Shown here one piece after another: positions 7,159-15,552 of a stretch of DNA of 64,000 bases. The DNA is from Camelus ferus. Its lineage: Eukaryota. The position numbers and the translations under genes were made by a program. The DNA lies in contig NC_045696.1 in assembly GCF_009834535.1 (NCBI RefSeq), forward strand, positions 82,276,001 through 82,340,000, in the 5' to 3' direction. Each line of letters begins with the position of its first letter. Position 1 is the stretch's first letter. The notes under the pieces were generated by a model that saw nothing but the letters and a program-made list of their open reading frames with translations, had not been told where the DNA came from and did not search any database.

Positions 7159-7357
7159 ATGAGTCAAACAGGGAAGAAAAGTTCCTCAGACGGAGAAAAG
7201 AAACAAAAGCCCAGACTTCATTTGTCGACAAATTCCTCAGGGGCTCAAAACTCAAGTCCCCCAAAGCTGAAAGTGGAAAAGAGAGCAATGAATGACCTTA
7301 AAACAACTGATTTCCAAATCAGTGAGGAGACACTGAAGATAGCCTCCTTAGACCCTG
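7159..7357 (+). pseudogene. LRRC31: LRRC31 first coding exon, with two compensating frameshifts
   Basis: ATG 7159 MSQTGKKSSSDGEKKQKP. The homologous QTSFVDKFLRGS..AES lies in a shifted frame from ~7212. The frame is regained at the AATG duplication 7287-7294 (NDLKTTDFQ). Phase-1 donor G|GTAAAC at 7358. Confidence 0.85.
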
Positions 7358-8510
7358 GTAAACTTCTGACTGCTGTTATTTCTTTATTTTTTAGAATAAT
7401 GTTCTCCCCTAAAAAGATCACATGGGTTAAAAAAACTAATACTGTAAGTCTCTGTTCTAAACATTTATTTTGTTGCCTTAAATTATTTAACTAATTTGCT
7501 CGTTTTACTTTTAAATTATCAAAAGTAATACGATATTACAAAAGGTTTACAGAAAATAACTTACTTCCTTTTATTCTAACACAAATGGTCATTTCTTCAA
7601 GATTCTTTTCAGTCTTTTATTCATATGCCTGCATTTGTGGTCAATCAACCAGTCAACTAACACTGAGCACCTACTCTGTGCTGGCCACTGTTGTTAGAAA
7701 TATAGCCAAGAAAAACAGGACCCTGTGTACACAAAGAACCAAAGGCAGGCATAATTTCAGTGTGATAAGTCATACAAAGAAAAATAAAGCAGACTAAGGA
7801 GACAGTGATGGATGAGTTGGGGGTGCTATTTTAGATGAGGTTGGAAGGAAGGGGTCCCTGATTTGTTGGCATTTGAGCAGAGATCTGAATCAAGTCAGCC
7901 GTATAGAATGGATGAGTGAAGCCAGCTACATAGGTATTTGTGGGAGCAGCTTTCCAGGCAAAGGATCTGTAAATGCAAAGGCCCAAGGTGGGAGTGAGCC
8001 TAGGGTGCTTGAGAGTGAGCCAGGATATCAGGGATGCTGAAGCAGGATGAGAGATGGACGAGAGTCTCCTACTGAGACTATCAGAGAGGTAGCTGGGGCC
8101 AGACTGGACGTCCTTTGCACTGTTATAATAGCTTATAAAGCCCTCCTGAGCTTACATGGAGACGTGATCCCATTTCTGGGACACATTACTATACTGCTCA
8201 GCTCTCACAGTGCCACGTGATGTTCAGACACCTAATTTTAACAGTGGCATAATATTCCATTACATGCATATGCCATCATTATGTAACTTCCTTTTTTGCC
8301 CTTTAGTGAATATCTTTGGCTTTCCCTCTCCCCTATTATCTTCTTCACTGCATTTCAGGTATTTTTAGTATAAATTCCCAGAGCAGAGATTACAATTTCA
8401 AGGGTTATGAAAACAAATATTACCAATTCTCTCTCTAAAGTTATGTGTCATATACAATGCCATCAATATGTTATCAATTAGATTAAACATATTTTTTAAA
8501 CACTTTGAGC

Positions 8511-8639
8511 TTTTTTCTTTTTGGTGGAGGGAGGTAATTGGGTTTATTTATTTATTTTTGGTGGAGGTACTGGAAATTGAACCAAGGACCTCATGCCTAC
8601 TAAGCATGTGCTCTACCACTTGAGCTATACCTTCCCCCC
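8511..8639 (-). mobile_element. tRNA-derived SINE (Vic-1-like)
   Basis: ctctaccacttgagctataccttcccc is the antisense SINE head. Confidence 0.85.
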
Positions 8640-10613
8640 AAACATTTTAAACTTTTATGCAAACATATACAAAAGAGAGAACCATATAAGGACTCCCCAT
8701 GATCACCTCTCTCTAACAATTATCAACCAATCTTGTTTCATTTACACCCACCCTCATTTCCCTTGGTATTTGCACCAAATACCCAAAATAATATCATTTC
8801 ACCAGTAAGCAGATTGAATATATTTTTGGAAATAGAAAGCTAAAAAGTCTGCCTTTAAAGGAGATAGTCTACCAGAAAGTTGTTGGTATTTGTTCTAAAG
8901 TACGTCTTCGAGCTTCGAGAACATGGTTAATGAATACCTATAACCATGATTAAATTAATAGTGCAAGACCGGCCAGCTGGTTATCCCAGCTGGGCGACAC
9001 TGGCTGCTTAAGCCATGCGTTGCTTCTCTATTTCCATTTCTTCTCAAACTCAGTGGCTCCTGGAGTCACATTAATCCTGTCCCACAGTTGGCTCTGGGAC
9101 CTTGTTCTGCCTCTCCATGGCTATCCTGGCTTTCCTTGTCTCTTGCCTGGACTACTGCCACCACTTCCCAACTGGTTTCTCTGCTCGTAGTCTTGCTCTC
9201 TTTCCAACCTGTCCTCCACACTGCCTCCGGGTCCTCTTTCTAAACCACAGACACCACGATGTCTCTCATTTGCTTAAAATCCTTCAGCGAGTCTTTCTTG
9301 CCTTGAAGAGAAAGTCTGTACCCTTAAGCATGGTCGTCAAGGCATTTGTGATAGGTTGAACATCTCTTCATGACCTCTGCCTTCCCCTAACCTCACATTC
9401 ATCCTCTGTCCTGACATTCTGATACTTGCCATTTCTTGAACCGGTTACGTTCTGCCAAAGTGGTTCCCTGTGCCTAGAAACACCTTTCCTTGTGTTGCCA
9501 CCCTCCCTCTGCTCTCCTTCCCCGTTCATCTCTCCCTTATGTCCACCCGCCTCACTGACTCCCACTCATCCTTTAAGGTGCAATTTATCCACCACTTTCA
9601 CTTGGAAGCTTGCTGAGAGCCACCCACCAGACCCGAGGCACTCACTGTCACTACCAGCGGTCACGCTGCACCCGCTGCATGGCTCCACCATTGTACTTCC
9701 CTCTGTGCTGTGACCATCACTCTCTTGTTGGTCTCCTCCACTGGACAGATAGCTCCTTGACAACAGGAACTTGTTATCTTGGTTCCCGGACAGCACCACC
9801 CATGCAACAAACATGTAACAGCGTGTTATGAGAGCGTTGGGACTTTGGTTTGTGAACAACAGAATCCAACCCCTACAGGTTTAGCTTGCAAAAGAGCCTG
9901 ATGAGAAGATACTACTTAGCTCACAGGGTCGCCTGGAGAAGCAAGAGCTTGCTTCAGTGGTAAAGCAGCCAGAAAAGGCCCCAAGTCGCTCCACAAAACT
10001 GCTCATGTGTGGTCACTTTCGCACCCCCAACAGAGCACCAGCCCTCCCACCTCAGCCAGCCTGTAGCAGCTCTGACTCATCTGTTTGATATTTTGAGCTG
10101 TGACATAAATATTCTTTGAAGAAAGGGTTTCATAGAATAAAAAAAGAAGAAATATATGGTCTGTAAGGAGAGGTCCAGGGGCTTCATAAACTGGTACTTA
10201 TATTTATACTTAGGTGTTTTAATAAAGATTTATCACGCTGATTTATTTTGGTAATTGAGGAACTGTAAAATTAATATTCAGTCATTCAGTCAGTTATTTA
10301 TTCATTCAACCAATATTTATAAAGTATCCTTCATGTAAAAGGCACTGCAGAGTTCCATCTTCATGACAGACCTCAGTAAGTTTAAGACACTATGCTCCTA
10401 AGAAATGAACCAGGCAGGAATTATAGTTTCCATTTTATAGATGAGTAAATCAAGGCTCAGAGAAGCTAAGTGACTTGCTTACCTGATGAGCCCACAGTTT
10501 GAAACAGGTCTTTCAACTGTGCTGCTTGGACTTGCCAATCATATCAAATATTACAGAGTACCCAAGTAGTGTGTGGTCTGAGAAGAGACTTCTGAATCTG
10601 TCAGGTGGTGGGT

Positions 10614-10975
10614 TGTTGGGCTGCACCCCGTCGGCCTGCAAGCCTTGTAGCTGCCCGGCCTTAAGGCCGAAGAAAGAGCCCGGAGACAGTGACAGAGACA
10701 TCAGTGGTTCATTGGTTAGGGGACCTTACACAAAGGTCCTGGAGCGACATCCCACCGTGTGCAGCAGCCAGCCAGCAGAAGCAGCAGTCTTCGCTACTCT
10801 GGAGACAAGGATGCTACTATTTATAGGGAGAATTGACGTGAGGTGGGCTCATCAGGCACAAATTAAGCCCTATAATTAAGAGGATTGGATTCTCATGTGA
10901 GTGTAGCCAAGACTGGTTGAGCAGGGGATGCACAGAGAGCAAGAGGACAGTCATCTTGAGTGACCTGACCATGCA
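10614..10975 (-). mobile_element. Solo ERV LTR inserted in an L2 fragment
   Basis: TG...CA termini, near-TSD tgggt/taggt, minus-strand TATA (ctatttatag 10817-10826), relatively CpG-rich. Confidence 0.65.
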
Positions 10976-11231
10976 TAGGTCATTGGTGGTGACCTTTGAG
11001 AAACAATTTATTTGGCTAGGTGAACGTGGCAACCGGAATGTAGAGGGTTAATTGGTGAATGTGATGAAGAAGTGGCGCCAGCGAGCACAAACCATTCTTT
11101 CCAAACATTTGACAGTAAAGGAAATGATTGACAGAACTGTGGCTTGAGGAGAAAACAATGAAGGTTTGGTGAGACTGGAACTTGAGCATGATTGTAGATA
11201 GAGACTATGGAGATAAAAAGGCTTAAAAACA

Positions 11232-14152: not shown

Positions 14153-14169
14153 GTGAGTGGAATTTGGAA

Positions 14170-14650
14170 TGTTACCGGAGGCAAGTTCATGTACCTGCTG
14201 CACCATGAGGCCAAACAAACTGAAACATCGAGGTTTGGAGCGAAGAAAGGTTTACCTGCAGGGCTGAGCAAGGAGGATGGGGCAGCCCGTGCCCAAGAAA
14301 ACCCCAAACTCCTCGAAGGGTTTCAGCAAAGCATATTTAAAGGCCAGATAAAGGGAGTGGGGGTCGCAGGGTACGCGATCAGCTCGTGCACAATTCACTG
14401 ATTGGTTGATGTTGAGGTAACAGGGCAGCCAACACTATCAACCTCCAGTAGCCAGAAGGTCTGGGGGCTACATGATCTCAATCATCAAGTAGTTAACTTT
14501 CTTCCTTTTGGTGGTGGTTGTAAGCACCTGAAAAACTCAGGAAACATACATGAGCTACTAATATCTGGGTACTTCAGAAAGGAGCTACAGCAGAGGGTAT
14601 GGGGGAGAGATCTGACCCTGGAAGGCCCCACAGGGTCCTGCTTGGTTACA
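14170..14650 (-). mobile_element. Solo ERV1-like LTR in an LRRC31 intron
   Basis: TGTTAC...GTTACA termini; shares gaggccaa-caaactgaaacatcg-ggtttggagc with the element at ~30350. Confidence 0.75.
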
Positions 14651-14861
14651 AGAGGAGTCCTTTTCAGGAAAAAATGTGATGACGCCCATGAATGGAGAGC
14701 TTGGGAGTCAAAGATGGCTGTGTCTTCTCTTACTCTGAATTGAAAGAGTGGCTCCCTCTATCCCAGGTCACACGAAGCTGTACTCCCCCTCCTGCTGCCC
14801 TAACTTTCACACCCAGCATCTTTTCTTTACTGAGTTGTTCTTTGGATTTCCTTCCTTCCAG

Positions 14862-15029
14862 GTCAGTTGCTGCCTATGCTGCAAAACCTTGAAGTACTTG
14901 ATCTTTCTATTAACGGAAACATCGGTGGCAGTTTCAATAGTACTGCTCAGGGATTAAAAAGTACCTCAAACTTGAAAGTCTTGAAATTACATTCATGTGG
15001 ATTATCACAAAAGAGTGCCACACTACTGG
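14862..15029 (+). pseudogene. LRRC31: LRRC31 LRR exon, reading frame still open
   Basis: 168 nt, polypyrimidine tract + cag| and |gtgagt; [55 protein letters not shown]. Confidence 0.9.
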
Positions 15030-15471
15030 GTGAGTTAGCAATGGCTGACGTTTATACATAATTTTATTTTCTATTTAATTTTTTAAGCTGTTGGGAAATA
15101 CAACAAAATATAAACAGTGGTTATGTTGAGAAATAAGATTATGGGTGATTTACATCTTCTTCACATTTTATTTATTTTCTATGTCTTTTACAGTGCGCAT
15201 ATACCTTCATGATTACAAAAATAACCTTTTAAAACAACTGGCTCTGAAAAGGCCAGGATATTTTAGGTTTGAGAGAAATACAGGGCAAAATAAAAGTTTC
15301 TGTGCTACTAAAGCTCTCCATTTTCCTCTTAACTTTTGAAAATGCCAGTATTATTTTCTGCTTAGTAGCAGGAAGGAATTGATCCTGAAATAAAGAACCT
15401 ACCCCCTCCCCGCCCCTCTCCTGCCTACCACCTTGTAATACGTCAGAAAGGGATTTTGACCTTCTTTGTCG

Positions 15472-15552
15472 ATGCTGTTTTAGACACTTGTGTGAGCTGA
15501 GGAAACTAGACAAGGAGCTGGGCAGAGGGCCTGAAGACTCCTCAGGGTTGGC
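15472..15552 (+). pseudogene. LRRC31: LRRC31 truncated LRR exon (orthologous to the DAAFRYLGELRKLD exon)
   Basis: DAV/RHLCELRKLD----KELGRGPEDS. The acceptor reads CG (15470-15471) rather than AG, with a 1-nt deletion and loss of LSCN; similarity ends at ~15552. Confidence 0.8.

Follow-up and report, generated by a model that had tools for sequence, protein, structure and literature searches.

The LRRC31 gene of the wild camel (Camelus ferus) is very probably a genuine unitary pseudogene, a reading to which we give a probability of about 93%. In the window, a 64,000-nucleotide (nt) stretch of the wild camel genome (G000:C1:82276001-82340000; 0 N in the window), LRRC31 was present as a single locus at its syntenic position, carried stop codons and frameshifts, and lacked five of its nine coding exons. 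The gene likely died long ago after selection on it had relaxed, and has since decayed without function. The cytochrome b of the assembly's mitochondrial DNA (translation table 2) is identical to a protein named Camelus ferus, in agreement with the camelid suggested in the initial annotation. The LRRC31 locus has kept its introns, no other copy was found in the assembly, outgroup species have open protein models, and the lesions in exon 4 were present in other individuals.

Remaining and missing exons

The nine coding exons were numbered independently of annotation, by inference from the splice sites of the window and from the spacing of 56 residues at which the rhino protein repeats. Profiles for each exon were built from 29 orthologues and searched against the six frames of the window, and LRRC31 coding sequence remained for exons 1, 4 and 5 and the first half of exon 6. 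Exons 2, 3, 7, 8 and 9 gave no match of their own in the six frames, just cross-matches to the surviving repeats; the best own profile scores of exons 2 and 9 were below 0 bits. Protein searches of the camel's own genome did not find these five exons in the assembly either. The features of the locus are as follows:

4138-4177, plus strand: upstream alternative first exon, similar to the N-terminus of the pig and sheep models, with a GT donor at 4178
7159-7357, plus strand: remnant of coding exon 1, 199 nt against 190 expected, with two insertions
7358-13986, plus strand: intron stretch without coding exons 2 and 3, as judged by the profile search
13987-14152, plus strand: remnant of coding exon 4, 166 nt against 168 expected, with intact AG and GT splice sites
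14862-15029, plus strand: coding exon 5, the sole undamaged exon, 168 nt and open, with intact AG and GT splice sites
15472-15553, plus strand: first half of coding exon 6; similarity stops at 15553, the break point of a deletion

The remnants face 208 of the 557 rhino codons, and approximately 63% of the coding sequence is gone, with about 620 nt retained. The deletion at 15553 removed the rest of exon 6 together with exons 7 to 9. The stop codon of the neighbouring gene LRRIQ4 lies 1.2 kb from this break point, a gap in which three and a half exons cannot be hidden. Within the intron stretch, positions 9929-10139 resemble intronic sequence that is used in a pilot-whale gene model.

Exon 5 was 89% identical to the deer and horse sequences and 85-89% identical to the reference mammalian LRRC31 proteins (fallow deer P0028, white rhino P0021, pig P0373 and the human isoforms P0074 and P0387). 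As a query, it matched at least 110 proteins among 396 candidates at 69-90% identity, nearly all of the named ones being LRRC31; its scores against named LRRC31 proteins reached 181 bits, so the resemblance is not due to chance. The remnant retains its introns and native exon borders and is not a retrocopy. It shares with mammalian LRRC31 the position by LRRIQ4, LRRC34 and MYNN and the pattern of 168-nt phase-1 exons, but differs in the missing coding sequence and in the damage to three of its four remaining exons.

The upstream exon is the camel trace of another first exon, from which the LRRC31 models of caprines, oryx and pig start. In tblastn comparisons, 4138-4177 was identical to the pig and sheep N-termini at 10 of 13 and 10 of 14 residues (E values of 4e-6 and 4e-5, respectively), and a CTA codon stands opposite the Met of those models.

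Lesions and conceptual products

Lesions were placed by frameshift-aware alignment to the rhino, deer and horse proteins. In exon 4, a TAG codon at 14034-14036 replaces a conserved Trp, two nucleotides are deleted at approximately 14043, and a TGA codon follows at 14080-14082. The acceptor of exon 6 reads CG instead of AG (15470-15471), and the exon itself has lost one nucleotide at its start (read from the sequence as AT GCT GT TTT against D-A-A-F in orthologues) and 12 nt at 15512, which removes L-S-C-N of a repeat. The initial annotation of this stretch had reported four LRRC31-like exons next to LRRIQ4, which is correct for the coding exons, and had described the lesions of exons 4 and 6, including the truncation of the latter; each of them is present.

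Exon 1, for which the initial annotation had listed no lesion, carries two tandem-type insertions, 5 nt at approximately 7195 and 4 nt at approximately 7287; the frame is restored after about 30 scrambled codons. We gave these frameshifts little weight as proof of loss in their own right, because they cancel each other and the N-terminus is variable in the mouse, gerbil, pig and caprine models. A missing codon at 15548 was not counted as a lesion, since the same one-residue gap in exon 6 is present in the other cetartiodactyls aligned and absent in the outgroups. Overall, the locus carries at least two large deletions, five small insertions or deletions (indels), two stop codons and one splice-site change.

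The longest conceptual products are 82 residues (exon 1 to exon 4), 111 residues (exon 1 unspliced) and 132 residues (exon 1 to exon 5 and into the intron), as compared with about 490-560 residues in intact mammalian LRRC31 models. These products would hold at most one 56-residue unit of this ribonuclease-inhibitor-like leucine-rich repeat (LRR) protein, and the locus is therefore predicted to make no working LRRC31.

Copy number and sequencing reads

When the camel's own genome was searched with exon 5 and with the LRRC31 proteins of deer and rhino, the LRRC31 locus came back together with one match of 31-35% identity on contig C3; the searches scored the best candidates only, and the assembly may be incomplete. 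The C3 match corresponds to the last exon of NAIP (E value of 1e-60 to PDB 8fvu_A) and was therefore rejected as a second LRRC31 copy. The working parent copy that a duplicated pseudogene would have was not found in the assembly searches, and the junction stretch 15480-15780 is single-copy in the assembly. Open LRRC31 protein models were present in the outgroups pig, warthog, peccary, deer, musk deer, sheep, horse and rhino.

Of 24 sequencing runs listed, 14 from five studies, all assigned to one organism, were probably DNA, and these held 0.93-0.95 of 920 sampled words from 7000-15900. Reads from two of the 14 (X3, 2015, and X12, 2022, from different studies) and from two RNA-type runs were compared with 13740-14855. 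Each of X3 and X12 yielded a single contig spanning 13740-14223, in which neither a differing letter nor a gap occurred. Both contigs are thus identical to the assembly over exon 4, which indicates that the three exon-4 lesions are real in other animals. Sequencing error had been judged improbable in the initial annotation, and the reads bear this out for exon 4. It had also named raw reads without the stops and frameshifts, or an intact copy elsewhere, as what would speak against a unitary pseudogene; the exon-4 stops and deletion were in both DNA runs compared, and the own-genome searches gave no such copy. With the lesions, the missing exons and the lack of a second copy in the assembly, its proposal of a unitary pseudogene stands.

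Timing and cause of the loss

The number and variety of the lesions argue for a long decay. Selection on LRRC31 would have relaxed and the gene would have died long ago, with large deletions, small indels, stops and a splice-site change building up stepwise over what may have been many millions of years. The decay probably began before the camel-llama split, and its cause would be the dispensability of a modulator gene rather than adaptation to diet. Branch lengths were estimated from 135 residues of exons 4 to 6 on a fixed species tree with 100 bootstrap replicates. The camel branch (0.147 substitutions per site) was longer than the mean of eight land artiodactyls (0.098), and four whales ranged from 0.097 to 0.144. 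The camel excess over the land-artiodactyl mean recurred in 90 of the 100 replicates, which fits relaxed selection but is not significant.

Several observations weigh against a long-dead gene or limit the support for it. The remaining 10 replicates showed the opposite order, and the intervals overlap (0.094-0.192 for the camel and 0.067-0.125 for the land artiodactyls). Exon 5 is undamaged, and one contig, described below, suggests that splicing goes on. The read comparison covers exon 4; the exon 1 insertions, the exon 6 lesions and the deletion junctions rest on the assembly. No camelid-named LRRC31 was found among the 110 matches listed for exon 5, and no camelid- or lagomorph-named one among the 120 matches listed of 131 to the deer C-terminus; this absence is weak evidence because a homologue search with LRRIQ4, which is intact in the camel, likewise gave no camelid-named protein among 23.

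The literature also bears on the timing. A screen of 58 species including alpaca and Bactrian camel, which required two eroded sister species, lists LRRC31 for rabbit and pika only (PMC7498332). This pattern, a further point against an old loss, fits an alpaca LRRC31 that is intact or could not be scored. A study of all seven camelid species, which cites a date of about 16.3 million years ago for the split between camels and llamas, looked for genes lost in Old World camels but intact in alpaca (PMC12127551). LRRC31 is not named in the text of that study or in six of its supplements, and its absence from the Old-World-only losses fits a loss common to all camelids.

It is possible, though clearly the less likely timing, that the loss is real but recent, being confined to Old World camels, with alpaca and llama retaining LRRC31. 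The modest branch-length excess and the lack of a camel-plus-alpaca erosion call in PMC7498332 are consistent with this timing. On the other hand, many independent lesions have accumulated in the retained coding sequence, and the screen in PMC12127551, which was aimed at just such losses, did not pick up the gene. A recent loss concerns timing alone and is compatible with a unitary pseudogene. Overall, we favor a loss shared by all camelids as the probable history.

LRRC31 in other mammals

A search with the last 109 residues of deer LRRC31 found 131 matches among 193 candidates, and placentals, marsupials, ratites and a turtle were among the matches listed. Full-length models exist for deer, musk deer and reindeer. 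Rabbit and pika LRRC31 are listed as eroded in a supplementary row of Turakhia et al. 2020 (PMC7498332). In these lagomorphs, as in the camel, LRRC31 was inactivated in a mammalian clade, so that the gene is dispensable in at least one more group; however, the lineage is independent, and that screen has neither camel nor alpaca for LRRC31.

The cetacean protein models (P0092, P0096, P0097, P0101, P0103, P0201, P0204, P0205 and P0222) have low-quality flags and skipped, replaced or truncated exons. Two baleen-whale RefSeq entries are flagged as low quality, and the killer-whale model is truncated. In the fin-whale model, a Thr occupies the position of the usual first Met. The signs of decay in these models resemble the camel case, but most exons are still there, and the whales share a one-residue deletion in exon 4 that is absent in the camel, which suggests that the lesions are independent. 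No lesion shared with whales was seen at the protein level. LRRC31 was absent from the examined supplements of two cetacean gene-loss screens; judging from the protein models, an unreported decay of LRRC31 in whales is possible.

Pig was rejected as a further loss: the Ensembl pig models P0083 and P0180-P0183 have intron sequence in place of exon 4, whereas the exon is present in RefSeq or transcript-derived proteins of pig, warthog and peccary. The Ensembl LRRC31 models of cattle hybrid and yak (P0091, P0094, P0105 and P0411) are shorter and patched and run past the usual stop. A metagenome scan for orthologous DNA returned one match, at 40%, which is unrelated.

Function of intact LRRC31 and the foregut

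Intact LRRC31 matched 38 solved sequences as a ribonuclease-inhibitor-like LRR protein, the best being RNH1 (PDB 1dfj; E value of 4e-22), and it has been grouped with RNH1 and the NLRPs (PMC8922048). The LRR domains of RNH1, NLRP, NLRC4 and NAIP resemble LRRC31, whose last exon matches the NAIP C-terminus with an E value of 3e-4; they are distant paralogues and not copies. As a lead, LRRC31 might be regarded as a stand-alone NLR-type LRR domain. The open last exon of camel NAIP (L010:1480-1872 on G000:C3) has about 31% identity to the last exon of LRRC31, and we saw no evidence here that this exon replaces LRRC31.

LRRC31 is reported to be induced by IL-13 and to regulate kallikreins and barrier function in oesophageal epithelium (PMC12872989 and PMC5924738, citing D'Mello 2016). 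It is also reported to bind Ku70/Ku80 and ATR and to inhibit DNA-PKcs (PMC12872989, PMC5924738). This reported role in the oesophagus raises the idea that the loss was adaptive and tied to the multi-chambered foregut or the oesophageal and gut epithelium of camelids. Damaged models in whales, which have chambered stomachs, and the patched look of some cattle and yak Ensembl models point the same way. We nevertheless regard an adaptive loss as unlikely, because open and full-length or nearly full-length models are present in deer, musk deer, reindeer, sheep, colobine monkeys and wallaby (e.g., fallow deer P0028, 555 aa; sheep P0190, 506 aa; red colobus P0011, 552 aa; tammar wallaby P0154, 594 aa). 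Deer, sheep, colobines and wallaby are foregut fermenters, and rabbit and pika are hindgut fermenters. The other reported loss is that in lagomorphs (PMC7498332), and LRRC31 does not appear in nine supplements of a screen for convergent losses in herbivores and carnivores (PMC6386725). Since foregut fermenters keep open models and the reported loss is in lagomorphs, the suggestion that the loss is of interest for foregut fermentation is not supported, and a tendency of LRRC31 loss to track this mode of digestion does not emerge from the models compared.

Possible residual transcription and assembly artefacts

A contig of 418 nt (depth 8) from run X17, which is probably RNA, agrees with 13810-14136 at every position and continues for 91 nt off the examined stretch. 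The contig begins 177 nt before the exon-4 acceptor. A splice at CAG/GTGATG (14134) to exon 5, whose first letters are GTC, would account for a match that extends precisely to 14136. The donor at 14134 ties for the best consensus, a score reached equally by 3 of the 27 GT sites in 383 nt. This one contig is a hint of continued splicing of the remnant, perhaps to exon 5; a transcript spliced at 14134 would still include the TAG at 14034. A 151-nt piece from the RNA-type run X15 (depth 2.3) covers part of exon 4 and gives no evidence of expression. The last part of 13740-14855 had no coverage in any run examined, which proves nothing.

The X17 contig, whose match to the genome ends at a donor-like site within exon 4, and the intact exon 5 with its splice sites could also be explained if the protein gene were dead but the locus had been retained for a separate function of a spliced non-coding RNA. 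We consider this very unlikely: there is one contig from one run that may hold DNA, its partner exon is putative, and residual transcription of pseudogenes is common. In addition, no Rfam family was found in 3000-18000 besides two tRNA-derived repeats.

Least credible of all is an assembly artefact or collapsed duplication, in which an intact camel LRRC31 would be misassembled or absent from the assembly; the reads compared were for exon 4 in 2 of the 14 DNA runs and the genome search was restricted as noted above, but all three exon-4 lesions were in both runs with no second allele listed there, which largely refutes this explanation, an intact copy of at least 85% likeness would have joined the X3 and X12 contigs, the window is free of gaps, LRRIQ4 and LRRC34 are open, and the lesions number about a dozen of five types.

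Novelty and meaning of the loss

We found no report of LRRC31 loss in camels in the full-text literature; one may well exist in the TOGA loss tables, in subscription papers or in bioRxiv supplements, which lay outside this search. LRRC31 was likewise absent from the examined supplements of PMC6760925, PMC7671337, PMC12534381, PMC6386725, PMC12127551 and PMC5865188. The camel case thus appears to be undescribed, although it is a gene loss of an ordinary kind in a gene already reported as lost in lagomorphs. It points to no new mechanism and has been linked to no trait of camels.

Camels are likely natural LRRC31 knockouts. A gene proposed in humans to suppress tumours, to sensitise cells to radiation and to regulate barrier function would then be dispensable in a large, long-lived mammal; the loss sets a limit on how essential these roles are, and camel cells could serve as a natural-knockout system. 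A broader proposal, which we find doubtful as a whole, is that LRRC31 was lost in the camelid ancestor and independently in lagomorphs and, still in progress, in whales, which would make all these animals natural knockouts for an IL-13-driven kallikrein regulator that is also reported to restrain Ku/DNA-PK and ATR repair, with the camel locus persisting as a spliced non-coding RNA. If this were true, camel cells would repair double-strand breaks measurably faster or differ in their epithelial response to IL-13, and re-expression of pig or deer LRRC31 would reverse the change.

Neighbouring genes and repeats

The LRRC31 remnant lies on the plus strand and faces LRRIQ4 tail to tail; LRRC34 and MYNN come next, and this order confirms its syntenic position. 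In humans, LRRC31 and LRRIQ4 are tail to tail as well. The human TERC cluster includes LRRC31, LRRC34 and MYNN (PMC8533930). The other features of the window are as follows:

16752-28645, minus strand: LRRIQ4, an intact neighbour with five exons, GT-AG joins and 561 open codons
38608-52659, plus strand: LRRC34, about 420 open codons across ten joined exons (first exon not included)
14170-14651, no strand assigned: long terminal repeat (LTR)-like multi-copy element, TG...CA, 482 nt, in intron 4, 17 nt past the exon-4 donor

The neighbours had been described as free of lesions, and this was borne out for LRRIQ4 and the ten LRRC34 exons; MYNN is only partly in the window, and just one open zinc-finger exon of it was seen. 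Three LRRC34-like reference proteins came from a search of 50% representatives, which was otherwise swamped by unrelated LRR proteins. When the cattle LRRIQ4 model (P0124) was compared with the open camel exon at 27623-28645 (minus strand), a frame switch over about 110 residues was seen, and the oryx LRRIQ4 model carries a low-quality flag. From these models, LRRIQ4 may be broken in bovids and intact in the camel.

The best other copy of the LTR-like element was 86% identical (best 40 of 2352 candidates scored). The element is old, yet it provides no date for the LRRC31 loss. An unnamed mammalian open reading frame through intron 4 (P0104) matches both flanks of the element and lacks the element itself. 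Thousands of related pieces were present in the camel runs, including one related X17 contig at a depth of 1142, so that at least one member of the family may be strongly transcribed. Two tRNA-like Rfam matches, at 3624-3695 and 8562-8634 (minus strand), lie inside short repeats that are presumably camelid tRNA-derived short interspersed elements. Eleven nuclear matches to cytochrome b, of the type of nuclear copies of mitochondrial DNA, were located on contigs C4, C32, C18, C5, C9, C6 and C11.

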